Source of the DNA: Amphiscolops sp. MND2022
Taxonomy: Eukaryota
Assembly: GCA_964187785.1 (NCBI GenBank)
Contig: OZ076409.1
Span: 7,380,001-7,444,000, forward strand
Reading direction: 5' to 3'
Length of the DNA: 64,000 nt
Positions 25,981-57,000 of the stretch are shown one piece after another. The first letter of the stretch is position 1. The number at the start of each line of letters is the position of its first letter. A program made the position numbers and the translations under genes. Below the pieces are notes generated by a model. It saw only the letters and a program-made list of their open reading frames with translations. It made no database searches and was not told where the DNA came from.

Positions 25981-27690
25981 TGCCATCGGGTGTCAGTACA
26001 GTGTACATCCATGGGGATTCGTCTTCACATTAAAATATCGTTTTTCGTCTGAAGCATCGAAGGGAGTTATCCTCAAATGCTCGGAGAAAGTAATTCAAGG
26101 TCATAGAACTTTCCCCCCTCCTCGGTTGCATGACATGTCAAGGTTAGTCAGTTTTTAATGTTTTCAAATCTACAATAACAGAGTTGAGAGCCGAAATTAT
26201 AAAGCAATGCCAGAAAAAAGTTCTGGATTTTGTAACTTTGGGTTGTTTATTGAAATGAAAAGTGAAGAAGTGATTCAACCAACCCTGTAGAGAATCAGCT
26301 TCAGTTGAACACTCGGAAGCGTCTCTTGAAGGTACATCTCCAGAAAAAGTCATATCCTGTTTGTCTATGTCTTTCGATTTGCTCGCAGCTAAAACCAAAG
26401 TATGATAAATAAGTACACCAAAATTCTCAAAGATCATCTTCTAGACTTCCTTTATATGCATGAACAAGACAATGCCCCAGCCGATACATTGATAAAAACA
26501 AAAAAAAAACAAAAAATGGGTTTACTTTACTGTAAAATTGGCCTGTACAGTTCCCTGATCTCAGCATTACATTATCGAAAATGTGTGGAGTGTCCTGAAG
26601 AAAAACAACTGTAAAAGACATCCGGAGAACCTGGAAGAACGTTGGACTTATGCACACGAAGAATTCGAAAAATTCCGGTTGAGTACATTGTAAAACTTTA
26701 AAACTCTTAATGTCTCGACGATTGCAGCTAGTTGTTGCAAGAAGAAGCTATCCGACGAAATATTACACTTTTTTCTACGTGATGGTACGTTTTGCATTTT
26801 TTTTCGTTTTTGGATACGTTTTGTTATATTTTTGATCTGACTTCAATTCGATAAAATTTTGTACGGGGTCGCGTTCTTTCCTCACACCACTGTAAATGAT
26901 TCTAATTTTATTTAGATACATGTTTATAAGCTTCGTGTATTTTTGGTCGGCGCTTCATGAACTGAAACGCGACTATTATAGTGACTCTTTTTTTTCAATC
27001 CACACGAACTGACCGAAAGAGTTCTTAAAAGTTCTACGAAATTTCATGAGACCAAATTGCAACATTTGGCTTAGCGAACTGAACCAAAAAAGTTTTTTTA
27101 TGTTTTTCCGCGTAACATACAATACCAGGACAGACTGAAGGGTCCCCCTTTTAGTTTTTTTTTCATTTTTTCAGCACTTTTAGACTTTTGTTCGAAAAAA
27201 ATATCATGAAATGGTCCCCCTTCAATTTTTAGACGTTTTGTAACAATGGATGTTATAAATCCGAAAAGATCCCACTTTTAGCGCGCCGGGGCCCGCTAGC
27301 GGGCACCCGGCTTGCAAATTTGGTCAAATTTCTTGGGTTTTTCAGGTACTGACTACTTGTAAAGAATACTTGTGAAGTAAGAAATACTTGACAGTTTGAA
27401 GTCCTTTTGCTATTTCTAAGCCTTAGATATGGCGCCGACTTATGCCGTTCCCGGCTTGTTTGGTACGAAATTGACTAATTTGCCGAAAATTCCTTTCAGT
27501 AATTTGAAATTTTCAACTCAAACATTTTTGCACTGTGTATATAGACGCAATGACTTCAGCCTTGTATGAGCGTGGGATCTTGAGGCTTTTCTTGTTTAGA
27601 GATGAATTTCAAATTTTTCTACTTTGTGAGTTCCAAAGTCATGTTTTATCAAAATTTTTGGGCCCACAATCAATACACAAGCTCCCTTGT

Positions 27691-30600
27691 AAATCAAATG
27701 AAACTATTTCTGGATCAATTGTGAGGTATTGCATCAAAAAAGACACGAAAACCACTTTCACCCTAACTCGAAAAGTCACATAGTGCCGAAAAAACACCGA
27801 GCGTGGGGCCCTCTGGTCTTCCCTTTACTTTTGTAAGCATAAAATTCTGGTTTAGTGCAATCAAATGACACTATTTTAGGATCAATTGTGAGGTATTGCA
27901 TCAAAAAAGACACGAAAACCACTTTACCCTAACTCGAAAAGTCACATAGTGCCGGAAAAAAACACCGAGCGTGGGGCCCTCTTGTCTTTCCTTTACTTTT
28001 GTAAGCATAAAATTCTGGTTTAGTGCAATCAAATGACACTATTTTAGGATCAATTGTGAGGTATTGCATCAAAAAAGACACGAAAACCACTTTCACCCTA
28101 ACTCGAAAAGTCACATAGTGCCGAAAAAACACCGAACGTGGGGCCCTCTGGTCTTCCCTTTACTTTTGTAAGCATAAAATTCTGGTTTAGTGCAATCAAA
28201 TGACACTATTTTAGGATCAATTGTGAGGTATTGCATCAAAAAAGACACGAAAACCACTTTCACCCTTACTCGAAAAGTCACATAGTGCCGAAAAAACACC
28301 GAACGTGGGGCCCTCTGGTCTTCCCTTTACTTTTGTAAGCATAAAATTCTGGTTTAGTGCAATCAAATGACACTATTTTAGGATCAATTGTGAGGTATTG
28401 CATCAAAAAAGACACGAAAACCACTTTACCCTAACTCGAAAAGTCACATAGTGCCGGAAAAAAACACCGAGCGTGGGGCCCTCTTGTCTTTCCTTTACTT
28501 TTGTAAGCATAAAATTCTGGTTTAGTGCAATCAAATGACACTATTTTAGGATCAATTGTGAGGTATTGCATCAAAAAAGACACGAAAACCACTTTCACCC
28601 TAACTCGAAAAGTCACATAGTGCCGAAAAAACACCGAGCGTGGGGCCCTCTGGTCTTCCCTTTACTTTTGTAAGCATAAAATTCTGGTTTAGTGCAATCA
28701 AATGACACTATTTTAGGATCAATTGTGAGGTATTGCATCAAAAAAGACACGAAAACCACTTTCACCCTAACTCGAAAAGTCACATAGTGCCGAAAAAACA
28801 CCGAACGTGGGGCCCTCTGGTCTTCCCTTTACTTTTGTAAGCATAAAATTCTGGTTTAGTGCAATCAAATGACACTATTTTAGGATCAATTGTGAGGTAT
28901 TGCATCAAAAAAGACACGAAAACCACTTTACCCTAACTCGAAAAGTCACATAGTGCCGGAAAAAAACACCGAGCGTGGGGCCCTCTTGTCTTTCCTTTAC
29001 TTTTGTAAGCATAAAATTCTGGTTTAGTGCAATCAAATGACACTATTTTAGGATCAATTGTGAGGTATTGCATCAAAAAAGACACGAAAACCACTTTCAC
29101 CCTAACTCGAAAAGTCACATAGTGCCGGAAAAAAACACCGAGCGTGGGGCCCTCTTGTCTTTCCTTTACTTTTGTAAGCATAAAATTCTGGTTTAGTGCA
29201 ATCAAATGACACTATTTTAGGATCAATTGTGAGGTATTGCATCAAAAAAGACACGAAAACCACTTTCACCCTAACTCGAAAAGTCACATAGTGCCGGAAA
29301 AAAACACCGAGCGTGGGGCCCTCTTGTCTTTCCTTTACTTTTGTAAGCATAAAATTCTGGTTTAGTGCAATCAAATGACACTATTTTAGGATCAATTGTG
29401 AGGTATTGCATCAAAAAAGACACGAAAACCACTTTACCCTAACTCGAAAAGTCACATAGTGCCGGAAAAAAACACCGAGCGTGGGGCCCTCTTGTCTTTC
29501 CTTTACTTTTGTAAGCATAAAATTCTGGTTTAGTGCAATCAAATGACACTATTTTAGGATCAATTGTGAGGTATTGCATCAAAAAAGACACGAAAACCAC
29601 TTTCACCCTAACTCGAAAAGTCACATAGTGCCGAAAAAACACCGAACGTGGGGCCCTCTGGTCTTCCCTTTACTTTTGTAAGCATAAAATTCTGGTTTAG
29701 TGCAATCAAATGACACTATTTTAGGATCAATTGTGAGGTATTGCATCAAAAAAGACACGAAAACCACTTTACCCTAACTCGAAAAGTCACATAGTGCCGG
29801 AAAAAAACACCGAGCGTGGGGCCCTCTTGTCTTTCCTTTACTTTTGTAAGCATAAAATTCTGGTTTAGTGCAATCAAATGACACTATTTTAGGATCAATT
29901 GTGAGGTATTGCATCAAAAAAGACACGAAAACCACTTTCACCCTAACTCGAAAAGTCACATAGTGCCGAAAAAACACCGAACGTGGGGCCCTCTGGTCTT
30001 TCCTTTACTTTTGTAAGCATAAAATTCTGGTTTAGTGCAATCAAATGACACTATTTTAGGATCAATTGTGAGGTATTGCATCAAAAAAGACACGAAAACC
30101 ACTTTCACCCTAACTCGAAAAGTCACATAGTGCCGAAAAAACACCGAACGTGGGGCCCTCTGGTCTTCCCTTTACTTTTGTAAGCATAAAATTCTGGTTT
30201 AGTGCAATCAAATGACACTATTTTAGGATCAATTGTGAGGTATTGCATCAAAAAAGACACGAAAACCACTTTCACCCTAACTCGAAAAGTCACATAGTGC
30301 CGAAAAAACACCGAACGTGGGGCCCTCTGGTCTTCCCTTTACTTTTGTAAGCATAAAATTCTGGTTTAGTGCAATCAAATGACACTATTTTAGGATCAAT
30401 TGTGAGGTATTGCATCAAAAAAGACACGAAAACCACTTTCACCCTAACTCGAAAAGTCACATAGTGCCGAAAAAACACCGAACGTGGGGCCCTCTGGTCT
30501 TCCCTTTACTTTTGTAAGCATAAAATTCTGGTTTAGTGCAATCAAATGACACTATTTTAGGATCAATTGTGAGGTATTGCATCAAAAAAGACACGAAAAC

Positions 30601-32044
30601 CACTTTCACCCTAACTCGAAAAGTCACATAGTGCCGAAAAAACACCGAACGTGGGGCCCTCTGGTCTTCCCTTTACTTTTGTAAGCATAAAATTCTGGTT
30701 TAGTGCAATCAAATGACACTATTTTAGGATCAATTGTGAGGTATTGCATCAAAAAAGACACGAAAACCACTTTCACCCTAACTCGAAAAGTCACATAGTG
30801 CCGAAAAAACACCGAACATGGGGCCCTCTGGTCTTCCCTTTACTTTTGTAAGCATAAAATTCTGGTTTAGTGCAATCAAATGACACTATTTTAGGATCAA
30901 TTGTGAGGTATTGCATCAAAAAAGACACGAAAACCACTTTCACCCTAACTCGAAAAGTCACATAGTGCCGAAAAAACACCGAACGTGGGGCCCTCTGGTC
31001 TTCCCTTTACTTTTGTAAGCATAAAATTCTGGTTTAGTGCAATCAAATGACACTATTTTAGGATCAATTGTGAGGTATTGCATCAAAAAAGACACGAAAA
31101 CCACTTTACCCTAACTCGAAAAGTCACATAGTGCCGGAAAAAAACACCGAGCGTGGGGCCCTCTTGTCTTTCCTTTACTTTTGTAAGCATAAAATTCTGG
31201 TTTAGTGCAATCAAATGACACTATTTTAGGATCAATTGTGAGGTATTGCATCAAAAAAGACACGAAAACCACTTTCACCCTAACTCGAAAAGTCACATAG
31301 TGCCGAAAAAACACCGAACGTGGGGCCCTCTGGTCTTTCCTTTACTTTTGTAAGCATAAAATTCTGGTTTAGTGCAATCAAATGACACTATTTTAGGATC
31401 AATTGTGAGGTATTGCATCAAAAAAGACACGAAAACCACTTTCACCCTAACTCGAAAAGTCACATAGTGCCGAAAAAACACCGAACGTGGGGCCCTCTGG
31501 TCTTCCCTTTACTTTTGTAAGCATAAAATTCTGGTTTAGTGCAATCAAATGACACTATTTTAGGATCAATTGTGAGGTATTGCATCAAAAAAGACACGAA
31601 AACCACTTTCACCCTAACTCGAAAAGTCACATAGTGCCGAAAAAACACCGAACGTGGGGCCTCTGGTCTTTCCTTTACTTTTGTAAGCATAAAATTCTGG
31701 TTTAGTGCAATCAAATGACACTATTTTAGGATCAATTGTGAGGTATTGCATCAAAAAAGACACGAAAACCACTTTCACCCTAACTCGAAAAGTCACATAG
31801 TGCCGAAAAAACACCGAGCGTGGGGCCCTCTTGTCTTTCCTTTACTTTTGTAAGCATAAAATTCTGGTTTAGTGCAATCAAATGACACTATTTTAGGATC
31901 AATTGTGAGGTATTGCATCAAAAAAGACACGAAAACCACTTTCACCCTAACTCGAAAAGTCACATAGTGCCGAAAAAACACCGAACGTGGGGCCCTCTGG
32001 TCTTTCCTTTACTTTTGTAAGCATAAAATTCTGGTTTAGTGCAA
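27691..32044. repeat. ~167-169 bp satellite array (~26 highly similar units)
   Basis: Unit ATCAAATGACACTATTTTAGGATCAATTGTGAGG...CTGGTTTAGTGCA repeats head-to-tail, with two interspersed subtypes. Confidence 0.98.
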
Positions 32045-32531
32045 AACTCGAACCCACGTACTCTTTCTTCATCTCAGACATCGTCTTCAAGAAATCAGAG
32101 TTAACCTCTAGGCCTAGTAGCAGTTAGAGTACAGTAACTTATCGAAATGCTTTTAAAAATCTGTCAATTCGCTAGTATTAAAATAAAACTTTTGTTGAAC
32201 TTTTTTGGTCACTTTCACAAACTTGAAAACCAACGAAAATGCTCAAAATCGTCGGCCTTTTCTTAAAATTGCGTCACATTAAAATAGCTCCTCTGTCAAA
32301 CTCCAGAAACTGTTTGGGAATTTTGAAAAAACACGTTCGAGTTATTCGATCCGTTAAGTCAAAGGTGACACTAAATTATTCTTTATAAGATCTTTATCCA
32401 CACATTATAATTATTATATTTATTTTTACCCACCCACACACAAAAAAACAATACTTTTGTTCCATTGATAAGGATCCCTCTTCAAAAGCCAAGTTCTCTT
32501 AGGGGTCCATTTCAGGGGCTGCAGTGTACAT

Positions 32532-40514: not shown

Positions 40515-40878
40515 CTGTAAAGAACGATACTGTATTTAATATTTCTACTTTTTGCTATTACTTATTTTTATTTCTATTCGATTAGTGGAATACTTCAGTA
40601 GGTTTGGTAGCTTTTCACAAGTTTCGCTGGTTTATTTGCTTGCAGAATACACTTCAATGATTGTATATTGAGGTTTAGTATCATTTCACCCCACGTTCAT
40701 TTCACCACATATCAATTCACCCCAAATTCGTTTCAACCCACGTTCATTCCAGCCCAAACTTAAATTATCAAATGGGTCTCAGATACATGACTATTGCCAC
40801 CCAATTAGCGCTAATAGAAAAGCGTCTTGAACCTAATTACCAATTAGCTAAGCAAACGATGCTTGCTATGTGAACCAC

Positions 40879-42252
40879 TGTCATGCTCGATCGCATGAAT
40901 TGAATTGACGACTGCAACCCTTAGTCGTCACAAACTCTGAAAACAATAGGATTTGTTCAACCAAATTTAATGAAGCTATTAAAATGGAAAAAGCGACTGG
41001 CTTAAGTCGTCAATATAGCTCATTCCAATTTCATGTGGCAATAACAAAATTGTGCTAAACAACGACTAACACCTTTAGTGGTGGCATCTATCTTCAACAT
41101 ATCATACAAACAGTGCAATAGAAATACACGAACGGCCAAACTACTCAGACGTCAAGCGATGATCTATAATTTTTTTCCAATATTAATGCAAGTTATCTTT
41201 ATCCAGTAATGTGATTCTTCATAACGACTAAAACATTCAGTCGTCTTTTGCAGTTCAATATTCAATCTCATGTAATTTAACATTTCATTATTTATTTCGA
41301 ATAAAACCACGACCGGCCTAACCAGTCGTCAATGAGTTGAATTGTTTACATGTACCTCAATATGAATCCTTGACCACGTTGATTTGTGTATTTAGTATTC
41401 ATATTATTCATCATTTGTAAAAACATTAAAATCATAATCACTACCACGACCATTAGTCGTCATTAGTATATGGAGCCTTGATTACTCATTTAGTGTTCTA
41501 TTATCAACCATTTGTATAAGTAATGTAACCATGATGACGACTGCGACCATTAGTCGTCATTAACACGCATCACGTGATTAACCACCATTCAATCATATAA
41601 AGCAGTAGCAAGTGCGAAAGTGAGATTACAATATATCTAAATGATGATTAATAACGACTGTAGCACACTGTCGTACATAACACCATTGCGCAATAATTAG
41701 CACCTCGTATCATCAACCAATCATTATGCAGTAACCAGACACGTGACAAAGACGCACAATTTGAATTGAGTAGTTTTTCGATCTAGTAGTGAAATTCAGT
41801 AAGATTTGGATAACAACCAAGTGCAGTCGTTATACCTTGCTCCTGAGTTCATTACCACAGTCAATCGAAACAACATTTTTCTTCAATACAATAACCTTCC
41901 TTCTACTTAATTCAATTCGTAAAACTAACAACTTCTTTCAAAATGGTCAACACCAGAGCTCAGGCTTTGCAAAACAATTATAATAAACAAGACGAAACAA
42001 ACGACTATGATGACAATTCTAGTGACATTAGCTTACCAGAATTCGACACACGTACTTTCGAGTTAGAAAACAACGTCAATAACTTCAGCGAACAAGAAAG
42101 AGTACGTATAGAACGCAGATTTAATGAAATGAACAGGCAAATAGGAGAGTTGACTTCTCTAGTACGAACCCTAGCGGATAGGATTTCCTCGAGTAATCGA
42201 GAAGAGAAATGCAGTAATTCATCGCAAAATAGATCCCCAAGCCATTCTGACA
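40879..42252 (+). mobile_element. Solo LTR A (1374 bp)
   Basis: TGTCA...TGACA termini; flanks ACCAC / GCCAC (4/5 TSD match); contains the start of a gag-like ORF. Confidence 0.8.
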
Positions 42253-42284
42253 GCCACAAAATCGGAACCGAAAATTTTCACTAA
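41943..42284 (+). CDS. LTR-encoded gag-like N-terminal fragment reading out into flanking DNA
   Basis: MVNTRAQ start typical of Gypsy gag, acidic spacer, coiled coil ERRFNEMNRQIGELTSLVRTL. About 103 codons lie inside the LTR. Confidence 0.65.
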   Translation: MVNTRAQALQNNYNKQDETNDYDDNSSDISLPEFDTRTFELENNVNNFSEQERVRIERRFNEMNRQIGELTSLVRTLADRISSSNREEKCSNSSQNRSPSHSDSHKIGTENFH

Positions 42285-43706
42285 TCGGAATTGTAATTTT
42301 CGTATTTTTTGAAAATAATTTTGAAACTCCATGTTTACTCGGAGGTATTTTGAAATTGGCTATTCTATTAATTACCGCTAAGTTGAGTCGCTAATAAAAA
42401 AAGCTAACAAGTTCCTCTGCCGCCGCTAATTCGCTAATTTTGCGGTGCCAAAACCCTGAACTTCACATTTACCCAAAATATTCCCTCAGCTAAATTGACT
42501 TTTGCGCTTTCAAAGACTAAAAGAAGCGCCGCTTTGGAAAGATATCGGTTTTTATTTCTCAAACAAAGAGCTGAGAAAAAAATTTCTGTCAATCAAAGTC
42601 TGCATTTTTGGATGTTGCTAATATTCAGCAAAAATTTTCGATTCCGTTTTCCTACGGCAAAAACTTTCCTACAGGCCAGAAACTTCAAATCTAACACAAA
42701 GACAGTAGGCATCAAAGTTTAAACCTTAATTGGCTAATTAACGTGAGACGCTTTCGTATAATTACAATATGGTGTGAAATGAAAGCGGGATGAAATGAAT
42801 ATGGGGTGAAATGAATGTGGGGTGAAGTGATATGGGGTGATGTGATATGAGCTGAAATGGCATGGGGTGAAATGATTTTGGGGTGAAATGAACGCACACT
42901 TATATTGAAACTTTAATTTCCTTCCGCTTGAAAGGTGATTTTCTTGATTTGTTGTGTTTGACAAAATAAACACTTTTACGGTGCGTCTTCATTGAATGAT
43001 ACGCTTTGTAAGCTGGTAAGTTGATTGACTCTGTCTGTATTTTTGTGCACATATTTTGACCCTTTAAGTGCTGAACAATCACAAAAATTCTATAAAACCC
43101 AGTGAACGACACCAGTGAAGCTTGATTTTATTCAGAGAATATTCTTCAATTACCTTAGTGATACTCCCGGGATTCCGTACCATACAGAACCAGGTTCATC
43201 ATACTGTGCCATATTAAAGCAAGGTTGATTACAGGTTGATCACACACTGGACAATAAAGGTTTTTGGTTCCAACCTGACCATACTCTGGACCATAGATGG
43301 TTCAGTCTATGATTAACCTGTTTCCAGATTTGGCCAATATTATGATCAACATGATTTCATTAAACATTGGAGGCTCACTATTAACTGGATCATGCCTGGT
43401 CCAGAGTATGTTCAGCCTGGAACCATAAATAGAAAATTGAGATAACGTAGTCAGTTAACACATTCACTGATGCTATTACTCGATATTCCTCAATCAAAGT
43501 GTCAATACAATCACAGAACAGAAGACAAGGTGGCAATCATCAACGTGTAGCACTTTTCTCTAACAGCAGGTTTTAGCAGCAGGCTATTCCTAATATCTGA
43601 AATTTTTTCTCTAAATTGCGTGTCACAGCAACCCGCGTGGGCAACAAAATTTTATGAAATTGGTTTGATCATACTCTAGGCCCTTTATGATTCCAGACTG
43701 GACCAT

Positions 43707-45306
43707 TGTCATGCCAGCATGATGGAAATATAATCTAATAAAATCTATATTGTACCTTTTATGCCATATATACTTATCTATGGGCAAAATGATGTCATAT
43801 AATAAGATTTATGGTTGTACGCAACTATGCGTTACTATACTAACCCCCCACCCTGAGTTTTGAGCTATCTACTACTCATTTATGAGCATCCTGGATCCAT
43901 ACTGTGCATATACGTTTGTTAAATTTAAATAATGGAGAAAATCCAAACAGGGACTCAAGTCACGAAAGAGGAAAACAGAAAGACTGAAACGATGAAAGAA
44001 CGATAAAACACATAGCACGACAGAAAGCTGAGCCTCGCAGCAAACTGTTGGCTTGAAACCTGAAATTCGTCTAAATCAGATCGTCCATACATGTAAAACG
44101 ATGATCAAGTTTCATCGCTTTTACATCGCTCAAAAGAGCCGCTCACCCCAGCAATTGTGATGATGCTAAAACGATGAAAGCTATACCTAAATACAAATTG
44201 TGCTCTTCTAACACTTTTCATCTGTATTACATCGTTTTACCGAACCAAACCAGAACCACAGAAACAAAATACTAGCACGAATGTAAACGATTGCAAATGG
44301 ATGAAACTTATTGATGATTTATTCCTACCTCTTAAACAAACACCTTTGCGTTATAATTTTCACTATGTATCAGAGATGAGATTCATCCATCGTTTTCACA
44401 TCCAATAGAACATACGGATACCGCACACACACGACTATTGAAAAACGACGTGTAAACGATGAATCTCATCTACATCGTGCAATAGCCTTCCTATTACAGT
44501 AGATTTATCGCTTTTGCATCGCTCATTTGCATTTCAAAACTGCTGTTACGTGACCCCTGAGTACTACTAGACTTATCGCTTTCACATCTGATGAGTATTT
44601 TATGCAGTTTACCGATGATTCAACGCTATTTGCTATGCGATATAAAACACAATCATCATAAGCATGTAAAACAATTTGAATTTCATTTGACGCGTATTTA
44701 ACGATGGTAGCCCCTTAACACCAACGAGAAGAACTCGTCACGTGACCAGACTCACATTAACACCTCGTTAGTGGACAGATGAAATTACACGGGTGGTAAA
44801 GATTTGAGGCTTACCGCCTGCAAACACGGGTCTACCGTCGAGCCACCATTACGCGAGTTAGTACACTGATTTTCAATTCAATACGTTATGATTCTTGTCA
44901 ACTGACTATTTTATTGCGACCAGATATCAAACTACAATTCAACTCTTTTCCACCAAAATCTCTCTGCTAGTGTTACATGAGCCATCTTTCACCCAGAAAG
45001 CTTAGAAACGGTAAACTACTTAGTCAAAGAAGTTTCAATCAAGCCGATAATTCACTCAGTGAAAGTAGTACGTTAATTATGGAAAACGGTAACAATGTTG
45101 AAAGCGAAATATTGCGAACTAGATCTCCTTCCCCTCAGAATCACAAGGAAACTCAACGCAAGAACGAAGAGCGATTTAATATGCTCCAAACAGAAATGTC
45201 ATCGCTGAGGCTATGATGGAAAAATTACTTGAACAGAACAGTAAGAAAGTAAGGCAAGTAGAGGCTGCTCCAACAACGTCCTCATTTACGGTGCAGTCGT
45301 CTAACA
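43707..45306 (+). mobile_element. Solo LTR B (1600 bp)
   Basis: TGTCA...TAACA termini; perfect 5-bp TSD ACCAT (43702-43706, 45307-45311). Interrupts a GGACCATA/TATGATC repeat element at ~43160-45420. Confidence 0.88.
44977..45306 (+). pseudogene. LTR-encoded gag-like N-terminal fragment (frameshift near 45210)
   Basis: MSHLSPRKLRNGK...EERFNMLQTEMSSL, continuing in the shifted frame as AMMEKLLEQN to the LTR end. Confidence 0.6.
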
Positions 45307-45804
45307 ACCATAGAAGTTTATGATTCCGGGCTGACCATAGTAAGATCATAGAAAAAATATGCATTATTTCTATGGTGCCATTTATGATCAGAGTATGATC
45401 AACCTTGTCGGGAAACCCGGTTTATTTAAAGCAACAAGAGGCAAAATCTCGAAAACACCAATAAGTTTATTTAAAAATATGAAAGTAGAAGTTTCTTAGA
45501 TTTTTACCTAGTTTACAAAAACTGGTTGGTATACAAACTGTGGTTCTCCTCAATTTTGGTCTACTTTAGCTCAGAAGTTTTGAAAAATTTCATGTTCAAT
45601 GGACACTTCCCTGATTTCACTGAAGCTCTTGATATTTTTTGATTTGAAATCACTCTAAGATCATGTATAGAGTATACTATTTTGAAAGTTAACCTGAAAC
45701 AAGTTTATACTGATACAATATTTTCCAGAAAATCAATATTGTCGGATTCGAAAGGTTCGGAAGACTTTTTATGTCAAATTTATTTCGAAATCAAAAAGTG
45801 TTGG

Positions 45805-46500
45805 TCAAAAATTCGAAAAACTAAAAAAAATGATGTTTTGGAATTTGCTCTTGTCATAACCTTCATCATTTTCACTTTGTTCAGAATCTTCCAAACATTC
45901 CATTTGATGATTTGAAAGGTTATTTGCTGTTGTGTTTAGTCTAGGAAAATTCTCTCTTGAGTCCTGGACCTGTTGGCTGAATTTACTTTTATGCCGTCCA
46001 TATGACCCAAGGTCCAAAGTTTGGTCCATAGGGACGTTTCTACTCGGATGCCGTCCATCTGACCGAAGGTCCAATTTCGCGTTCTTAGGCTCCCTATGAT
46101 TTACTATGACATTTTCGATGCTCGGTAGTATTTTTTCATCGATAGCGGAGTTTATTACCTCCATAATATGGGAATTTAGATCAGATTTCATTTCTTCCAA
46201 TTTCCTCGACATCTGTGAAGAAATTTCTGAACTAATTGCTCTACTAGTTTCTACTGTAATTTCACTATTCTCACTCAAATTTGTATTCAAAAGAGATCTA
46301 TAGTTGCTTTCTTCTTGTCTGAAACCTTGTTGCCGTCTACTTGACTCAGGGTCAATTTCTATTTGATCTACTGTGTTTTGGTCTCTAATCTCGCTGTTTG
46401 AGTAATTTCCAAGCATCACATCTAAATTTTCAATATCTGACATTACGTCAGACTGTCTAGAACGTTTCTCTCTTGCTTTCTGCTTTCTAGTTGAAGGCAT
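45805..46500 (-). CDS. Copy of gag N-terminus in the 3' LTR, ending in flanking DNA
   Basis: Matches gag up to ...NDEGYD, then continues with flank-derived KSKFQNIIFFSFSNF*. Confidence 0.7.
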   Translation of the reverse strand: MPSTRKQKAREKRSRQSDVMSDIENLDVMLGNYSNSEIRDQNTVDQIEIDPESSRRQQGFRQEESNYRSLLNTNLSENSEITVETSRAISSEISSQMSRKLEEMKSDLNSHIMEVINSAIDEKILPSIENVIVNHREPKNAKLDLRSDGRHPSRNVPMDQTLDLGSYGRHKSKFSQQVQDSRENFPRLNTTANNLSNHQMECLEDSEQSENDEGYDKSKFQNIIFFSFSNF

Positions 46501-47405
46501 TTTCAAGGAATGGATTTGATTCCAACAGTGAATTGATCAACAGTAACAAATCAAACAGTTTTGTATCGTAGCGTTTTCAATCAATGAATGAATGTCCCTT
46601 CTTATTACAAATTCCGCGTATATATAGTTTATACTGCATGACACGCAATATTTTGCGTGTCAGGAACTAAATTTAGGGTGATATCATTCTAAGTATAGCC
46701 CCGATTTCATTATTAGGTCACTAGTCCTAAAAATAGACTGAGGGTTTTGACATTACGTCACACAAATGAATAGATATAAATAGCATCAAACAAACAGTGG
46801 GTATCTTTACATGTATTCAAATTCAGGTTAAAATCAACCTTTCATGCATTGGTAACATCAATACTCAATGAAATTCTAAATTTGACCATGCGTCAGCATG
46901 ACTGCAATGATAGACTGGTACTTTACTCTGATTGGTCAACAAGTACTTGTGACCACACGTCGGTTTGACTGCGGTAGAGTACTAGTTAATTAACTAAGAA
47001 AAGTGTCTTAAGGTACTCTTTAAACACCGTTTAACAGCACTTGAGTTACTTTGCTAAGTATTGCGTCGTTAACTAAGTGATGTACTTTAGGTCCAGATTA
47101 ATTGCAAGTAATTTCATCAATGGGAAATTCTAAATAGTAACTAATCAATAATAGCAATTGAATAAATGCACAGATTAAATGCTGTCAGTTTGACCTTTGG
47201 TCTAAATAGTAACATCGAAATTGCATGTTTAGCGTTAATAATTCGGTCATTACATGCATGAAACAAATATTAAACTATCAAAATAAATGCTAAAGTTCGT
47301 TTCAGAGTTTGTTCTAGATAGGTAGTACCCCGGGGGCTGGTGGCGTCTCATTACCTTCTGGCATCATTTGGTATAGGATGCCGTCACAAGCGGCAGCTTG
47401 CGACA
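45852..47405 (-). repeat. 3' LTR (1554 bp)
   Basis: Near-identical to 60421-61975 (roughly 20 differences by eye); preceded by the PPT. Confidence 0.97.
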
Positions 47406-48138
47406 CTCCCCCCGGTACGAGTATGAACGTCCCTGCTTTCATACCTGCCTGGAATGCATCACGTCTAGCAATCCGCTGCTCATAAGTTTCTCCGGGAATG
47501 TGTGTCTGTTCAAGGTACCCCAATGTTATTTCTTCTTTAATGTCCGCAGATGATTTCCCACAGATCACGCAACCAGTTTGGGTCGTCTCATTCGGTTGTC
47601 CACAGCTTCCCCCGACGCTAATTCCTAGGCCAGTGATGTGTGAATTGCCATACCATGAATCTGCCGAACCGTGAGGTTGCGTAGGCTGGTAGGTGTCAAC
47701 TGAGGGTCCTTGGTCTTCTAGCGGAGGTGACCATGGGGAGTCCCGTATTGGGTTTAGCTGGCCACAATACGTTATTGGGTGGTCATCCGCATTTGAGCCA
47801 TAAGAGGTTCTTGGGGGGCCCCCAACACACCAATCGAGCAAGTCTTGTGACGGGTCCGTAAAAGTGCTCACTGATCCAATTAAATCGTCATCTGGTATGT
47901 TCAGGTCGTTCAAGCAATGAGCTAATTCTGTAGTCATTGCCCGACCCGCGGTGAGTTGTGGAGGGAAGGGTATATTTTCACGATAACAAGCAAGAACTTG
48001 TATGTCGTCGTCTGAATCTTGACCGTCAGGTCCGTCTGCAATGGACACTGAGTCCACTTCCATTTCTTCATCAGATGACTGGTACGAAAGGCTAACTAGA
48101 GGTCTATCGTGTTCCTCCAAAGAAAATTGTAGAGACAT
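47314..48138 (-). CDS. Accessory sense ORF (274 aa) overlapping PPT and U3
   Basis: Intact ORF with an acidic/Pro-rich N-terminus and a CVICG motif; the last ~30 codons lie in the LTR. Confidence 0.75.
   Translation of the reverse strand: MSLQFSLEEHDRPLVSLSYQSSDEEMEVDSVSIADGPDGQDSDDDIQVLACYRENIPFPPQLTAGRAMTTELAHCLNDLNIPDDDLIGSVSTFTDPSQDLLDWCVGGPPRTSYGSNADDHPITYCGQLNPIRDSPWSPPLEDQGPSVDTYQPTQPHGSADSWYGNSHITGLGISVGGSCGQPNETTQTGCVICGKSSADIKEEITLGYLEQTHIPGETYEQRIARRDAFQAGMKAGTFILVPGGVSQAAACDGILYQMMPEGNETPPAPGVLPI
47406..47413 (-). promoter_or_regulatory. Polypurine tract
   Basis: Minus strand GGGGGGAG lies immediately before the TGTCGC start of the 3' LTR. Confidence 0.85.
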
Positions 48139-48770
48139 TTCCTTGTAGAAACGTTGAATGAGAAGTTTTTAGCAATTGTGACAAACAAGGTTTGTAGCAA
48201 CTGAGTTTCACAAAGTTTGGGAGGCAAGTAATTTCCTGCCGCCTGCCGTCTTCTTGACTTCAGGTCCAACCCCAATTTTGGCGTGGGTTGGGCGCGGGGT
48301 TTTCCCCGAATCATAGTTTTCACATTTCCTATTTAGGTTTCGATTAAGAGCGGAGTCTCGAATAATTTTCGAGTAATTTATCTGCGAAGCTTGTTAATTG
48401 CCTCTTCAAGTTGTTTTACTTTATTCTTCAAAGGCGTCACTTGATAATCTAAGTGTTGTCTCTCTTAATTCTTCGTCAACAATTAACTTGAAAGACCGTC
48501 GGTCCTTTCGACGGCAGCAATGATGATAACCAATCAAATAACACTGGATTGATTGGTAAAATATGACGAATAATTTTATGAATGTGAAATGAAATAAGTA
48601 ATTTGATGCATTTTTAGGTGAAGAGAGAGTAATAAAGCGAAACAAGTAAAGAAGTCCATGAATATTTCACTGGCAGATTCCATACCATGAACTGTGAATA
48701 AAGAGCATGACTAAAGGAAAGGAGAAGATGGAAACATAAAAGAAAGTCTTACATGTAGCCACGACATCCA

Positions 48771-48835
48771 AATAATAATGATAGTAATAATAATATTAAT
48801 AATAATAATAATATCAATAATAATAATAATGATAA
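48771..48835. repeat. Imperfect (AAT)n microsatellite inside the element's intergenic region
   Basis: AATAATAATGATAGTAATAATAAT... run. Confidence 0.8.
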
Positions 48836-49453
48836 GAAGTCCGAGACTCTAAATTATTGGTAGGAGGTAGTAATTAGTCAAAAGAGTAGTTGTTGAGTAG
48901 AGGAAGTGAAATAAAGTACATTTGGTAACAAGTAACGTTGTGCCGTCATGATGACTCATCGTCCAATACGTTAGTTTTGGTTGAATATTATTTGATTGTG
49001 AACTAGTAATACATTGCCGTCAGGTTGACATTACGTCCACAGCTCTGTGCTTTTGCGTTAAAGACCATTGCCTTCATCAATTGTTTCCTCTTGTAGTATC
49101 ACTTGAGCTAGACTGTATTACCTAGTAATCAGGATAGTCTCTCTGACCTTGAGCAACAGATTGATTCAGTCTAAATTTCACCTTTTCCTAACCTCTCACC
49201 AGCATAAATTCACAAATTTTGCTTGCGTTAATTTGAATTGATATCCTCATATTCCACTTTTCTCCATTATTCGTCATCTAGAGGATCTTACTTCACTACA
49301 CGGCTCTCCAGACACAAATTCCGTGTGAAAGAATTTGGCAAATTCCTATTTGTCTGCTTTACTAAAAAATATCTGGGATTACGTTGTGAAGTCAAACAAA
49401 ATTCATCTTCAACAGCGTACAACAATTGGTCACATCAATTCTGTTGATCGAAT

Positions 49454-52400
49454 ATGGATTCAACATCAGGTTGGTTCTTTTGAAAGTGTTAAAATTAGGC
49501 TTGATCAGGGCTCATAATTCTAACTAAGTTACTTCCTCCATCGTGAAATGTTTGCTGTCAGCATGAACATTGTGTCAAAAGTATTTCCGGAAATATTTAT
49601 TAAGCGCGGCTAGATGGATTCATATTCAGGAAGTGAACCGCGTTTATTCATCTCATTCCGTTTAGGTGATGAATCTAATGGCCAACCTCTCCAATTGGTC
49701 GCTGAAGAAGAAAAAATGGATACAACTGATTCCTTTGTAACTGCCTCTTCCACTGTCAATAGTTTCCCCACCGTAAAGTCTATGACTCACGGCCAGAATG
49801 ATAATGACGACAAGTCAGATGATCCTGAGAGAGTAGTGGAAGACGATCCCAGTCTGGTGAGTGAGGGAGCAACTACAAGTTTGGGGAACATCACTGTGAC
49901 GCCTCAAGATCCCCCCATCACTATTTCCAACACAGAGGCCACTCCTCCTGCTATTACAGCAACTGGGAACGTTGAGAGTAGTAGCACTGATGAGAGTTGT
50001 GGGGCTTACATCGCTCGAAAGTGGGAACAATTGGGCTGTTCGCAAGAAACTGGTACATCGAGTCAGAACGACTGGAGCGGCAAGAAGTTTAGCGAGAGTA
50101 GCATGATGGAGCTGATGCCCGGTCAGTATTCCCCTACCCAAGATGAATTGGAGTTGGACGAAGCGCCAGAGGTTGCATTCCTGGACTCTCCCAAAGTACT
50201 ATTGAAAAGCAGTCTCAAGTCTCGATATGGGCCTTCCGAAGCAAAAGTTCAAAGACTGAGCGTGAAGTTGATTGCTCCAAGGACTGATTTGTCTGATGCC
50301 GCCGCCGGGACGGAAGGTCTCTCAAGTTCTGAAGCTGGATCCGAGTTCGCTGGGGAATTTGAAGCCCCCAGATTTGCAGATCCAACAGCGAACAGAGAAT
50401 CCGATAAGGTAACCAGTGACGCCGGGTTAGAGTCTGAAGGATTAGTCGGGTCCACAGTGGCTGATGTCCTGTTTGCACCTGCCCAAGCTAACGTATTTAG
50501 AGTGAGTGATGTAGCCAGCAACACGTCAGTAGATTTCCCTGAATCAGCACCTCGAGTCCCTCAACTGTCAGCTAGTAGTCGCGCTTTGATAAAGGAGTAT
50601 TTTGACGAGGCCACCCCCATCAGATTGTCTCCTGGGCATCCTACCCTTGCATTGAATGAGGGCCAAGTAAGTAGCTTGTTAAAAGTTGTAGCAGATGAAG
50701 CAGTTAAATCGTCGCTGAAAGCTATGGAAAACTTGGTACAACAAGCAAGCAGATTGAGCCTTGGAGCCCAGCGATCACCGACGGCCGTCATTCCGAGGTC
50801 GAAGAAAGCAATTTCTCAGACCAGTTATGCTGGGTCACAATCTGGTTTGTCATCAGGTCATACAAGCGATACCAGTGGGGGAATCAGAAGTGACGATGAT
50901 TTCGCCAGTATTGGATATGTTTACGAACATTCCGACCTGGAGAGTCAGCATTTTACTCCTCCCCCAACCGGTCCGTCTGGAAGCCGTCAAATTGACCTTG
51001 TGTCACCTGGAGCTTCAACCCAGACTGATAGCCCCGGAGGACAAACCTTGGCTGCGCTCAAAGCGGAGGCAGTATCGGAAAGGACTAAGTCTGGAACACG
51101 CCGAAGACAAAGCAAGAAGCCTACTCGTCCCAAAGGAGAGAGCAGACATCGGGTGCCTCGTGCCTGTAAAATCATGAAAGAGGCATATTTTAAAGGAATG
51201 GAGTGGACGAAGACGTTTGTAAGCGGACCAGTTGATCCTCGCTGGAATCCGTACAAATTTTATTGCCAAATCTGTAAAGGCAATATATCAATTTATGGAC
51301 GCGGCGCTCGAGAGATCCTTCGTCACCACTCCACCGAACGTCACCTTCGTAAGGATCAGAGGTGGCGTTACGAGCATCTTGCCATAGAAGACCCCGTGAG
51401 TGGAAGGAAAAAACACCATGTCAGAGGGAAGGACGGACGACTTCTCACCCCCTACGAGCTTCAATTAGAATTACCCAAGTTCATTGGGGTGGAACTCGTG
51501 GACATCGGAGAGAAGCTTCCGTTCTACGAAGAATACGCTCAAGGAGTTGACTACATGGCTTCTTCATCCGACAACCGTGTTCGAGTCCAGATGTCAGTTC
51601 TGGGTAACTACTTGCGAAGCTACGGCGATATCAGCACCCTGAGGAACCTCTGGCGGGATGTTGGGGTCGTTGTAAACCATCAGTCGCTCTTTACTGACTT
51701 TGACTGGAGTAAAGAACGGCTATCAGTAAGTACTTTCCTGCCGTTAAATCGACTTAAGGTCTTCCCCAGCCCAGTAATCGTTACCTTTGGCCTGCATTAA
51801 ATATGATGTTTTCATTCTAGGCTCTCTTCCACCACCTGTTCCTACAAAGTATACATGACATTGGAGACCATGTAGTTGCAGCGGGCGAGTATTCGCTGGA
51901 ATTTATCAAGCAAGGAGTCTTCCTGTTAGTGTTCATTCGTTTCTGGAGAAAGGACGAGCTCTGCCGAGTTTTCCTGAAGCGAACCGGCCGGGTCCTGGGA
52001 CAGTCGGCAGCCGAATTAAGCCTCATAAGTGACGTTTTGGCAGTTTTCTCACTCGGCCCCAACATTGTCAGTTGCTCCGGTTGCAGCCTGGAAACGATCC
52101 AGAAGGTAAATAGTTCTCCTTACAGTAAGCATGGACTCCAACACCCTCTCAGATTTGAGGACTTTTCAATCGCGCGGCTAATGCATAAAGAAAGCTATAG
52201 TGTCTTTGGACGCATCGACTTCCACTCCGTTCTCAAGTATCTAATCATCTTCTTGGGGGGAAGCCTCGACTGCGATTGGACCTTGATGACGCCAGTGTTG
52301 GCAAAGGTTAGACTCTCTCATTTTAGGCTTTTAGTCCACGGCTCTTTCAAAGGTACTAATAAACTTGTTGTGTTCAGGCTGTTCGTACTTGCCAAATTGA

Positions 52401-53866
52401 ACTCGCCACTCTCCCAACACTGTGTCAGGAGCTGCTTGCTAACTGGACAGATGTGACCAAATTCCTGAATGAACATGCACCTCCGCATGAAATGATGGGA
52501 GTGAGAAAACAAGTAAGTCGCTGCCGTCCCGTTGACCTTCAGTCTAATTTCAGTTGTTTCAATTTTCCTTTTGTTGTTCTAGCCTCAGAACCTAGAGCGA
52601 GCCATGATCCATGATGAGTTGTTTCTGTGCCGGCTTGAACTCTTCTATCGCTTGGTCAGGGATTGTAAGTATAATCCACCCGTAGTACGTATCATTTCTT
52701 GAGCTTTCGACAATCATAGTGAACGCAAGTGTTTAGGTACCACGAGCTTTGTGCCACATCTGACTGAACGACGGGATCATGGATTCCATATCTACAGGCA
52801 GTTATGCCAGTACCTCTTCAAGCTAGGAAGACGCTGTATCAAGCCGAAAAGTCTGCCACAGGAAACAGATCTGTCAGGGATTTTGGGTATTGCTATGTCG
52901 GATGCCAAAGCCTTAGCCATTCCCGATTTCATCGCCCGATCGAAGCTCGACCAACGACTGAACGTGGCTTGCAAAGTCAAGGCAGAAAAGGAATTGAGCG
53001 ACAAGAAGGGCAATCGGGCTAATCTTCCGAAACTCGTGAAAGAGAACAAAGAAGAGTTTGGGCGACTTGGGAGGAGCTACGTTGCCTACCTTTTCCATGC
53101 TGCCCAAAACAACTTACAACTGACCTCCACCATTGTGAAAGGATTGGGCTCCTTTGATCTGGACATTATGTATCGTTCTCCCCTTAGCCAGGCGCTGAAT
53201 TGTTTCAAGCATCTTTTCCGTAGCTTTCATCTTCGCGGTTACTTTCAAGCCGACGCGGAGTCCATCTATACAGAGGAATATTTATCATTCCTTGACGAGA
53301 TCCGCAAAGAGATGCCTGATCTGAGCCAACCAAGGGTCATAATCCAGGATGCAGTGACTCACATTTCCAATCATGTTGCCTTAGAGTCACGACCCCATCT
53401 TGCTCGGATCTTTAAGCTGAGCTGTTTATGTTTGGATGAGAGGTATGTTAGTATGCCTACCGTGAAGTTTGGTCCAGTGCGGACAGATGACCCCAAAAGT
53501 AAACTTATTGACACCATTCTGCCCGTTCAATCCTTCTTTATTAACGTGGGGCGGAGCATAGATGCCTTCACTTCAGCTTCTTCAATAGCTAAGTTCCTTT
53601 CCTTCGAACCTACGTTCGGGAATACTGCCTTCTCTGACATGTATAGCCCCTGGGACAGCCTCAATCGCTTCGATCGCTCTGAAATTCTTGCTGCTTTACG
53701 TCCGGGCTCAATGAAGAGGAAGACTGAAAGTCGAAAACTGAGGTTTAAAGATCTGAAAAGCAACAGCAGTTCCAAGAGTCTTCCGCCAGCCAGTGCCAAA
53801 GGATCGCCTGTGAGGCGTCAATCAGACAGCGAGTTGCCCTCTAGTTCATCTATTAAAGACACTTAA
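49454..53866 (+). CDS. Antisense spliced gene (~1300 aa), zinc-finger protein probably derived from a hAT-type transposase
   Basis: Predicted GT-AG introns at 51726-51820, 52307-52377, 52513-52582, 52665-52736 (and possibly 49470-49665) all join the ORF pieces in frame. Zinc finger FYCQICKGNISIYGRGAREILRHHSTERH. Confidence 0.85.
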
Positions 53867-54093
53867 TTGTACTATTTGTACATTTGTTTTTCGTTGTATT
53901 TATGTATCTTTCGTTTGTTGGCAGATTTGAGTTTGTTTATTTTATCGTTATTTGAAGTCTGTTTGTACCGTTGTGTCATTATGATGCCTGTGTTTGATCC
54001 ATTATTGTGGACTACAAGTCAGTCGAGGCCCATAAAAAGATTATTGGAGAGTCAAACGGTGTTGAGTCGGGCCAGTGAATATACATGTTCTAA

Positions 54094-57000
54094 CTAGTAC
54101 CTGTATTCGTCAGTGAAGTTGGGGGTAGGATTGGGGCGTAGGTTATATCTCCCTCCCCTAGGACTTTCATTTTCTACAACACAATCATCAGTTTCTTCAA
54201 TTAATACATCGGGCACGGTTGTATTGTTCCCCCCGGAAGTTGAAATTTCTGAATTTTCATCTCTAGGAAAGTCCTGATCGATCAATTCATCGTTTTTAGA
54301 TTCGGTACTTTGTTGCCGTCTAGCGGACTGACGGTCCTCATTGTGTGCGTTTCTTGAGTACTGCTCCGTATTATCAGCCTCAGTATTTGTTTGCCGTCGC
54401 GCGGACCGAAGGTCCGCTTCGTTTATTTCGTTTGAGCGTGAGTCACTATCAGTATCATCAGCGTGAGCGGCGTCAGTATTTGTTTGCCGTCGCGTGGACC
54501 GTAGGTCCAAATCTGTGATTATAGCATCTTGTTCATCGGAATTGGTAGGGAGTTCATTAGTAACAGTCCGATTTTCAGAATTAGGAGGGAAATCGTCAAA
54601 ATTGGTTTCCCATGAAATGATGTACAGATCATCTTGTGGAATAATAATTTCATCGTCTGCTTGTAAATTTCCTTCGGGGCGAATGTCTTGTGGGGTAGTA
54701 TTTGGAGTGTATTTTCTAAGGCGTATTCGGTGTAATATCTGCGTTTTGTTAGTACTAAGTTTGCGAACAATATAGTTGTCGTTAGGTAAAACTTTTTCAA
54801 TGACGTACGGTCCGATCCAACGAAATTCACGAAAAGGAATTTTAGAGCCTTGATGGTCAGCTAGAGGTTGTAAAATGAAGCAAAAATCTCCTTGTTGTAG
54901 AGGAGCTGCTTTAGCCTTTCGGTCATAATATTCCTTGTACTTTAAATATGATTGCATGATGTTTTTCTTTGTTTGATCAATTAATATTTGCGTACGTCTT
55001 TGAAATTCTTCAGCAAAATCAGTCGTTGGAGTGATCTTTGGGTTAGGGTTTAATCCAAACCGATGGTCTAAGATATTATAGGGTACTCTTCCGTGAAAAA
55101 ATCGGGTGGGTTCGCATCCAAGACTTGAATGATAGGTCGTGTTATAATTAAGGACAGCCAATGGGAGATATTTGTGCCATTGACGCCTGTATTCACCTGA
55201 TGCCATTTTAAGGTTGCCCTTAAGGCTGGCATGAGTGCGTTCTAGTTTGCCTATCGTCTGAGGATGCTTTGTGGTCGCGCACCGAAGGTGAATTCCTAAA
55301 ATTTTGGTATTTTCTTCTAGTAGTTTGGACGTAAAGGCAGTGCCTTTGTCGGTGATCAGCGTAGTCGGCAAGTAGGAATGTTTTGTCATGATATCAATAA
55401 TGACCTTTGCCGTATTGACGACCGAAGCGTCCGTTACTGGGTAGGCAAAAAGATATCTTGAAAACACGTCCAGAGCCGTTATGACATTTTCGTAACCTCC
55501 ACTTGGGGGTAAGTTGGGCAGAATGTCAATTTGTAAAGCATCTTCTGGGCCAAGATCCCATTCAGGTAAATTGAGTAATTCAGGTGTTATGGATGCATTG
55601 TTGATTCTTTTGTCTTTTATACAAATTTCACACCCTTGGACCCACTTTTTGACAATTTTTACAATTCCAGGAAAGTAGTATTTTCGTCGAATTTCGTGCA
55701 GCATTTTTGAGATTCCCGGGTGTTTGTTCGCGGAACCATGTAGTGATTGAAGTAATTCTGTGACTAGATGTTTCGGTAATAATGCTTGGCGGAATTGGAC
55801 ACTGCCTGTTTCATCGTAGTAGTCTCTGAAAATGATGTCATCATGTACGGACAGACGGTCAATTTGACGGCAGTAATGTCGGTAGCGCGAATCTTGCTGT
55901 AAGATGGTTTCAGAGTATTCTTCTTTTTGCAGTTTGAGTCGTAATTGATGCAAGATAAGGTCGTTCTGTTGTTCTATAGCCATGGTGGTTGGTTTTGCCA
56001 GTTTTTGTATATTTTGAGTTTGGAAGTGTGTATTATCATGAGTGCTAAGATGATCTAACAAAATATCAGGAGGTTGATTCATTGGGTTTGACCTGGCGTC
56101 TTGTTTGCGTTTCCAGATTTGTTCTTCTGTTTCTTCATCATCGTCCGTATAGAAGATCTGTTCCTCTTCAGTAACTCCCGCTGATTGGACGTTGAGTTCA
56201 ATGGGTGTGGTGGAAATATCTTCTCGTATCTGGAGTATGAGTTTTTCTTTGGGACAGATTTCTAGACGCGACAAGTAGTCAGCGGCAGTATTGTTTTTGC
56301 CAGGTATATGGGCTATTGTGAAACTGAATTGCATAACGTAGTCACACGCGTTCCACAATGTAGGTGGAATGATTTTTGTTTGAAAAGAGCGAGTGACTGA
56401 CTTGTTGTCTGTTAGTATTATCACCGGTTTCGGGGTCCCCCAGAAGATATGGCCAAACTCTTTGAATGCAAAGAATATTGCTAGGAATTCTTTCGCATAA
56501 ATGGTTATCTTCAGTTGGGCAGGACTAAAGGTCTTGGATCCATATGCTACAGGTGCGAAGGCTTTTCGCGTCGAAGTATATTTTTCCATCGGATCGTCCT
56601 CGATGAGAACTGCATAACCTGCTGCCGAAAAACTAGCGTCTGTCATTAGGGCTATCTGTTTATCGGGTAGAGGTTGTTTGAGTGCCAGTTCACAACATCG
56701 GTCAAGAGCTTTGTTGATCTCGGTGAATTTTTCTAACAGATCGGGTGTCACCATGACTTTGGCATCACTTTTCAATAACTTGAAAAACGGTGTGAGTTTT
56801 TCTGAGAGCCTTGGGATGTAGTTACGGTATTAGTTCAAGAATCCCAAGTGTCTTTGAAGTGCTTTCTTGGATTTAGGGATTTTGGTCTTTTCCAAGAAAT
56901 TCTGGACCCTGGGTCGTTGTGGCCGCACCCCTTCAGGAGTGATAGTGCGTCCCAGGAAGTCAATTTCCTTGGCTCCGAAATGGCACTTGTGCATCGTTAG

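Follow-up and report, generated by a model that had tools for sequence, protein, structure and literature searches.

How do two long terminal repeats (LTRs) that stand alone in a genome, and that share no similarity detectable by nucleotide search, both come to carry a reading frame for a Gag-like peptide at their 3′ end? This question is raised by a 64-kb stretch of the Amphiscolops sp. MND2022 genome (assembly GCA_964187785.1, contig OZ076409.1; C1:7380001-7444000 in our numbering, hereafter the window), in which two such repeats, LTR A and LTR B, lie to the left of a full-length element, W. A preliminary description of the window, made from its letters alone, had taken A and B for solo LTRs of unrelated families, each of them a promoter with an open reading frame (ORF) attached. 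Searches of the 1.07-Gb genome point to a different answer: A and B are very probably solo LTRs of one Ty3/gypsy-type superfamily in which the head of gag is coded within the LTR and reads through the primer-binding site (PBS) into the capsid, with the ORFs of the solo copies likely being unselected, decaying remnants.

Boundaries and reading frames of the two solo LTRs

The features that define the two repeats are the following, including their target-site duplications (TSDs).

40874-40878, no strand assigned: left TSD of LTR A, ACCAC; the right copy, GCCAC, lies at 42253-42257, with 4 of 5 bases equal
40879-42252, forward strand: solo LTR A, 1374 bp, with TGTCA...TGACA ends, starting TGTCATGC and ending ...TCTGACA
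41943-42284, forward strand: gag N-terminal ORF of LTR A, 103 codons in the LTR (to 42251), then 10 flank codons and a stop
43702-43706, no strand assigned: left TSD of LTR B, ACCAT; the right copy, ACCAT, lies at 45307-45311, with 5 of 5 bases equal
43707-45306, forward strand: solo LTR B, 1600 bp, with termini TGTCA...TAACA, starting TGTCATGCCAGCA (TGTCATGCC) and ending ...TCTAACA
44977-45216, forward strand: gag N-terminal ORF of LTR B, frame 1, 79 codons with the stop at 45214-45216; 45% identity to the database Gag P0087
45207-45305, forward strand: remainder of the gag N-terminus of LTR B, 33 codons in a shifted frame up to the LTR end

The right edge of LTR A is marked by genome matches to 40879-42300, which stop at query base 1374-1376 (42252-42254), and that of LTR B by matches to 43850-45350, which stop at query base 1455-1458 (45304-45307). 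As the matches to LTR B begin at the first base of the query, the left edge of this repeat has to lie further left; an alignment with 13 fetched loci places it at 43700-43711, where the sequence reads ACCAT followed by TGTCATGCCAGCA. No PBS was found after either repeat, the flanks past 42252 and 45306 not being PBS-like, which makes both of them solo LTRs. The preliminary description was correct in calling them so, as is borne out by their TG...CA termini, the TSDs, the missing PBS and the presence of paired parents elsewhere. A-type repeats occur as pairs at two other loci (L025 and L026), and intact elements of two further types, named E33 and E38 after their representatives, have an N-terminus homologous to that of A.

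The ORFs had been placed in the last 310-330 nt of the repeats. This holds for LTR A: from its ATG at 41943 it is 310 nt to the LTR end, and 119 codons are open in the frame set by that end. When compared with a profile built from six intact Gag N-termini, the A peptide matches with an hhalign probability of 98.5% (E 2.7e-15). In LTR B, where 330 nt separate the ATG at 44977 from the LTR end, this end is reached in a frame other than that of the ATG, and one that is open for 42 codons only. L031 and L057, two relatives of the B type, have the whole stretch in a single frame, so that the window copy of B must carry a frameshift near 45205-45213, about 90 nt before the LTR end. Past LTR B, the frame reaches a stop after 5 flank codons.

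A sister locus of LTR B lies about 270 kb away (L030, G000:C1:7149300-7159200). It is homologous to the surroundings of LTR B on either side (left, 92% over 180 nt; right, 84% over 479 nt) and has the same left junction, actggaccat/TGTCAT. In the place of LTR B it contains an LTR, a decayed gag, a pol that ends after the reverse transcriptase (RT) and RNase H, and a second LTR. The homologous flanks and the common junction imply that L030 and the window locus go back to one insertion that was duplicated later, and the window copy of B appears to have lost its interior, as by LTR-LTR recombination after the segmental duplication.

LTR A is enclosed by inverted arrays of GGGGTGAAATGA-like units of about 14 nt (40679-40781 and 42744-42890) that are 75-83% complementary. 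The structure around LTR A is probably an older foldback element or one similar to a miniature inverted-repeat transposable element (MITE), into which A inserted.

The gag start in the parent elements

Parent elements were sought with a capsid query derived from a decayed A-type copy, which returned more than 9,434 genomic candidates. Of the 150 that were scored, most lie within open frames of 515-551 residues. Eight candidates were fetched and four of them (E33, E40, E39 and E38) were extended to both LTRs, resulting in elements of 15,212-15,656 bp with LTR pairs that are 100%, 99.6%, 99.0% and 99.1% identical, respectively. All four have LTRs starting with TGTCATGCC, the PBS TGGTGACAGGAGT directly 3′ of the LTR and a purine tract that leads up to the 3′ LTR. 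Their gag ATG is located 322 nt before the LTR end, and in their Gags the last base of the LTR together with the PBS is translated as (D)-M-V-T-G-V. Eight elements with an open gag frame were sampled: MVTG comes after 107 residues in six of them and after 89 in one, and in the remaining one (L035) the open frame begins exactly at MVTG.

For the B type, residues 1-78 of P0087, an intact database Gag of 494 residues, match frame 1 of LTR B with 45% identity (E 2e-13), and P0087 is coded at 100% identity at several sites of this very genome. An intact B-type element, E84 (on C5), measures 16,357 bp and has 1819-bp LTRs that are 99.7% identical, with the TSD ATTGG; TSDs of 5 bp are also present at E39 and E38. 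Its LTR starts with TGTCATGCCAGCATGA, the same as in B, its ATG lies 331 nt before the LTR end, and TGGTGACAGGAGTC follows next.

In decayed, PBS-flanked copies of the A and B families the frame likewise continues across the junction into the capsid. Open codons before and after the LTR end amount to 97 and 101 in L061, 49 and 106 in L065, 84 and 68 in L016, and 76 and 64 in L080, and the frame stays open after the LTR end for 262 codons in L021 and for 134 codons in L082, where it reaches the capsid motif. The proposal that gag starts in the LTR is thus supported both by intact elements (E33, E39, E40 and E38 as well as E84) and by decayed copies. Full-length parents with an ORF that runs through the PBS into the capsid exist for A-like and B-type elements alike, and among the parents examined no gag was found to start 3′ of the PBS in a frame other than that of the LTR-borne ORF.

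At the junction, the final A of the LTR is joined to the opening TG of the PBS, which gives all families an ATG in the gag frame, coding for the M of MVTG. Such an in-frame junction ATG is seen where 42250-42252 would join the PBS of the parents (e.g. L033 2419-2425) and, on the reverse strand of the window, at 60419-60421. A shorter Gag without the LTR-coded head could be made from it.

One lineage or three

The preliminary description had regarded the families as unrelated. The comparison has to include the full element of the window, in which the features of interest are these.

60421-61975, reverse strand: 5′ LTR of W, with the PBS TGGTGACAGGAGCC next to it
59273-61069, reverse strand: gag of W, 598 residues; 216 codons in the 5′ LTR, followed by MVTG(A) from the PBS, the capsid and a zinc knuckle
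45852-47405, reverse strand: 3′ LTR of W, 98.7% identical to the 5′ LTR over 1555 bp (blastn)

The gag ATG of W lies 649 nt before the LTR end. Pfam finds the pol domains of W in the order protease, dUTPase, RT (RVT_1), RNase H (RT_RNaseH) and integrase (Integrase_H2C2, rve). The order protease, RT, RNase H, integrase is common to W and E33, by which the parents are to be classed as Ty3/gypsy-type LTR retrotransposons.

It could be argued that three unrelated families moved the start of gag into their LTRs independently of each other. At the nucleotide level, the LTRs of A, B and W have no similarity to each other by blastn at E<=1e-5, just as had been described beforehand; the N-termini of B-type elements and of W give no significant match to the A-type profile, and the length of the LTR-coded part differs (103-110 versus 216 codons). 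Below the reach of blastn, however, the LTR terminus TGTCATGC, 8 nt in length, is common to A, B, E33, E38 and E84 (W begins TGTCGC), and the helix of the A-type and B-type heads aligns in register in an alignment of 14 sequences. Convergence is further contradicted by the junction, which has the form ...ACA/TGGT(G/A)ACAGGAG, with the slash at the LTR end, and is read as (D/N)-M-V-T-G in A-type, B-type and W elements. The PBS TGGTGACAGGAG is the same in all groups and is read in the same frame, with TGGTAAC in old B copies. In addition, the capsids of the A-type, B-type and full-element groups are homologous, and all of them fall within one Gag tree. The tree was built by quick maximum likelihood from 57 Gags (every database match of at least 480 residues plus seven Gags of this genome), and it contains a clade of proteins starting with MVNTR or MVTTR and a clade that includes the B type; W stands outside on a long branch and its placement is unsure.

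Since the junction, the frame of the PBS and the capsid homology are common to all, the LTR-borne start of gag can be understood as a single trait inherited within the superfamily, and three separate inventions are very improbable. A, B and W are accordingly described here as deep branches of one Ty3/gypsy-type superfamily, with the common origin of the LTR-borne head being suggested by its position, the junction and the homology of the capsids. The label "unrelated" therefore does not hold in view of the common MVTG junction and capsid; the clade-wide design that had been proposed is real, but inherited once and not invented three times. The motif (M/L)(V/L)TG is present in 44 of the 50 database Gags of at least 480 residues, in 43 cases at residue 88-119. 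The homologue search behind this count returned 120 ENA proteins, at least some of which are coded in this same genome, so that the number is no gauge of the spread among species.

The LTR-coded head as a protein

In intact elements, the LTR-coded part of gag behaves like a protein-coding sequence. Six pairs of intact elements gave a ratio of nonsynonymous to synonymous substitution (dN/dS) of 0.05-0.15 over 107 LTR-coded codons, which indicates that these codons are under purifying selection in replicating lineages. This has to be weighed against the reading that the frames are chance ORFs in AT-rich, non-coding LTR DNA. They are short (79-113 residues) and of biased composition, and the LTR ORFs of A and B match no Pfam family at the gathering score. 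Besides the low dN/dS, a chance origin is at odds with the homology to intact Gag N-termini detected by hhalign and BLASTP, with the gag frame being open for a mean of 55-65 codons back from the LTR end compared with 0.2-40 codons in the other frames, and with the unbroken continuation of the frame into the capsid. Given the dN/dS, the homology and the continuity with the capsid, chance ORFs were rejected as an explanation, the probability left to them being negligible.

The layout that had been described for the peptides, a basic start followed by a spacer rich in serine and acidic residues and then by heptads, is real. In the 14-sequence alignment, hydrophobic residues occupy columns 74, 78, 81, 85, 88, 92, 95 and 99, i.e. 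with a spacing of 4-3-4-3-4-3-4, and the peak at a periodicity of 3.5 residues is limited to the heptad stretch of the alignment. The segment has hydrophobic a and d positions over at least three heptads within a helix, as expected for a coiled coil. AlphaFold2, given the A peptide and the 14-row alignment, models one helix from residue 41 to 89, with a per-residue confidence (pLDDT) of 94-98 at residues 51-80; outside the helix the model is of low confidence (mean pLDDT 66.8). The corresponding codons in the window are as follows.

42063-42209, forward strand: codons for the predicted long helix with the heptad segment in LTR A, residues 41-89

The heptad pattern noted earlier is therefore genuine, but it comprises only about 3.5 heptads in a single helix. 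According to the model and the alignment, the LTR-coded part would consist of a disordered basic and acidic head and one amphipathic helix that may aid the self-association of Gag.

L033, L040 and E38 have the signal AATAAA or ATTAAA at 121-125 nt from the LTR end, within the stretch that codes for the conserved helix (E-I/M-N-K/R-Q). This is the case in 3 of the 8 LTRs examined, and the positions are inconsistent between families. If the signal within the helix is used, the poly(A) site would be located inside the gag head.

Fate of the head in solo LTRs

Recombination between the two LTRs of an element would leave a solo copy that still contains the gag head, and this head would then likely decay neutrally. 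Whether solo copies retain the ORF was assessed on LTR 3′ ends that are the best-scoring matches in the genome and not a census. For the A type, 7 of 30 distinct ends are intact from the ATG to the end, namely window A, the 3′ LTR of L025, L064, L067, L077, L079 and L081 (from 32 rows, two of which are the same places as L026; L072 had no match to the end), and five of these seven are not flanked by a PBS. For the B type, intactness from ATG to end is limited to 1 of 26 distinct ends, L057 (from 27 rows; L031 accounts for two of them, a 99.8% duplicate counted once, and L056 is ambiguous with a shifted end). The mean open length back from the LTR end in A-type copies is 55 codons when a PBS follows (n=8) and 65 codons in the others (n=22; Mann-Whitney p 0.48); for B-type copies the values are 56 (n=5) and 59 (n=21; p 0.77). 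In these sampled ends, solo and 3′ LTRs thus keep the ORF no better than dead 5′ LTRs. Differences between paired LTRs, which date from after the insertion, are of similar frequency in the ORF part and in the rest, at 6/649 and 13/905 for W, 21/330 and 70/714 for L025, and 13/330 and 57/1266 for L026. Retention and paired-LTR divergence together fit neutral decay, with the samples being small.

A number of observations weigh against this picture, either against the common lineage or against decay without selection. The B-type N-termini reach only E 0.01 against the A-type profile, over 27 columns (61-87), which is not significant, even if this weak match falls on the same columns 61-87 as in the A type, and the 216 LTR-coded residues of W, with E 0.47, have no significant match to it. 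No TSD was found for W, E33 and E40 at the boundaries used. The ORF of LTR A is wholly intact, yet its nearest relatives are 75-94% identical over parts; this intactness is compatible with chance, given that 7 of 30 copies are intact, which in turn does not prove neutrality. The two LTRs of an element differ somewhat less within the ORF part than outside it, in 3 of 3 pairs. Lastly, the retention test is coarse, because copies not flanked by a PBS include both solo and 3′ LTRs and are taken irrespective of their age.

The preliminary description had proposed that each solo LTR is a cassette that could make Gag inhibitors or seed new genes. On this reading, transcripts of solo LTRs would be translated into N-terminal peptides of Gag, and the helix of these peptides would co-assemble with full Gag and damp transposition, or the cassettes would give rise to new host genes. 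The conserved heptad helix with its high-confidence AlphaFold2 model speaks for it, as do the intact frame and ATG of LTR A, the 5 of 22 A-type ends without a PBS that are intact, and the conserved palindrome and TATA-like block upstream of the ORF (see below). On the other side, LTR B is frameshifted and has lost its TATA-like block, the B-type ends are intact in 1 of 26 cases, retention does not exceed that of dead 5′ LTRs, the peptide contains no capsid domain, and each solo copy terminates in arbitrary flank codons. The frameshift, the lost TATA-like block and the retention leave the proposal without support, and we regard it as highly unlikely. The same low expectation applies to its most far-reaching form, in which thousands of solo LTRs serve as a reservoir of N-terminal Gag "decoy" peptides, expressed from their own LTR promoter, with the helix pairing with Gag of the same family and poisoning its assembly. 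If this were true, the decoy would act as a brake on copy number that grows with every LTR-LTR recombination, and at times would be a source of host coiled-coil genes.

Upstream palindrome and other motifs of the LTR

Both ORFs had been noted to be preceded by CACGTGAC about 200-240 nt upstream of the ATG, and the exact distances are 203 nt in A and 238 nt in B.

41740-41747, forward strand: CACGTGAC, 203 nt upstream of the ATG of A
44737-44746, no strand assigned: palindrome GTCACGTGAC, 238 nt upstream of the ATG of B

In the 64-kb window, CACGTGAC occurs in these two places only (41740 and 44737/44739). With 3 matches on both strands against 1.07 expected, a number reached by 9 of 100 shuffles, its count is unremarkable; it is the position upstream of the ATGs that stands out. 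Of 27 B-type copies, 14 have kept a 12-nt palindrome, GGTCACGTGACC, at a distance of 549-581 nt from the LTR end. The palindrome of E84 lies exactly 238 nt upstream of the ATG, and E38-type elements have it 172-177 nt upstream of the ATG in 4 of 4 cases. E33-type elements contain no CACGTG in 3 of 3 cases; they have a hairpin-like (G/A)ACGACT-N9-AGTCGTC 228-239 nt upstream. Among A-type ends, CACGTG is found in this zone in 2 of 30 (window A and L004). In the B and E38 lineages, the CACGTG palindrome is thus likely to be a cis element that has been conserved; its standing in A is uncertain.

The role of the palindrome could be that of an upstream promoter site or of a palindrome in the leader RNA. 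CACGTG cores are bound by factors of the basic helix-loop-helix (bHLH) type, and CCAAT-like boxes are located ahead of the palindrome in A and E38. In B-type LTRs, a conserved TATA-like block precedes the palindrome by 85-100 nt, so that the palindrome would come to lie within the leader RNA; the block is kept by 7 of 8 aligned relatives and has been lost by the window copy of B. In Ty1, leader palindromes serve RNA dimerisation, according to PMC5454406. The 10-nt inverted repeat around the palindrome of B contains no compensatory changes in 8 copies.

The U3 region of the LTRs contains arrays of short motifs that are specific to each family, occur in both orientations and often form inverted pairs of 7-9 bp (A, 40906-41680; B, 43985-44700; L084, 1390-2300). 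AGTCGTC/GACGACT occurs 8 times in the 1374 nt of LTR A, where about 0.2 are expected, AACGATG and AAACGAT occur 7 times each in LTR B, and the E84 LTR contains CGATGAA, AACGATG and AGCGATG 7 times each, even though most of its U3 cannot be aligned with that of B. A host factor or a protein of the element could bind to these arrays.

Comparison with known systems

In the yeast element Ty1, the start codon of gag lies in U5 and the LTR holds roughly a dozen gag codons. The PBS of Ty1 lies within the GAG ORF (PMC4974528). The elements described here resemble Ty1 and Ty2 in that Gag starts upstream of the LTR end and the PBS is read as gag codons. They differ in having 103-216 codons in the LTR, including the whole predicted helix, in their size of 15-16 kb and in a different primer site. 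The integrase follows RNase H here and does not precede RT as in Ty1/copia elements, so that the layout is alike without the elements being members of that group. For Ty3/gypsy elements, a search of the open-access literature with exact phrases found nothing relevant on a gag start inside the LTR. The layout known to textbooks only from yeast Ty1 can be regarded as the ancestral state of a very large Ty3/gypsy-type superfamily of animals. The elements have a long-headed form of this layout, with 100-216 LTR codons that include a helical domain under selection.

The peptides of solo LTRs are similar to Ty1 p22/p18 in being truncated fragments of a Gag encoded by the element itself. The difference is that p22 inhibits through its capsid part, whereas the head coded by a solo LTR goes no further than the LTR itself and falls short of the capsid motif by about 60 codons; without capsid it is a poor analogue of p22. 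Selection for the solo-LTR head, moreover, was not seen (intact ends: A type, 7 of 30; B type, 1 of 26). The head as such is comparable to the N-terminal domain of mammalian Arc, in which a helical segment ahead of the capsid lobes is needed for assembly. The coiled coil of LINE-1 ORF1p is a comparable helical assembly segment. In contrast to Arc and ORF1p, self-association is predicted here from the heptads and a monomer model only, and the segment is coded by the LTR.

These properties have consequences for annotation. When LTRs are assumed to be non-coding, the Gags of such elements are cut by about 100 residues, and gene prediction will produce spurious short genes wherever a solo LTR lies. 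A triple duty falls to the 3′ third of the LTR, as it codes for protein, contains the integrase end and abuts the PBS. This triple duty explains why only the 3′ third stays alignable between families.

Other features of element W and of the window

The dUTPase of W is located between protease and RT (PF00692, E 5.8e-6, 56830-58668, reverse strand), and in the pol of E33 no dUTPase was found at E<=0.001. In all intact elements, pol is separated from the 3′ LTR by a spacer of about 6.7-7 kb (47406-54093 in W). The spacer of intact elements contains a conserved antisense ORF of 397-423 residues without a Pfam match, e.g. L041 405-1598 (reverse strand), and antisense ORFs of W are located on the forward strand at 49614-51800 and 52895-53866.

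The 64-kb window contains no tRNA genes and includes 200 N. It also contains two long tandem arrays, one at 23980-26100 with about 48 copies of a 45-bp unit and one at 27622-32175 with about 26 copies of a 167-168-bp unit.

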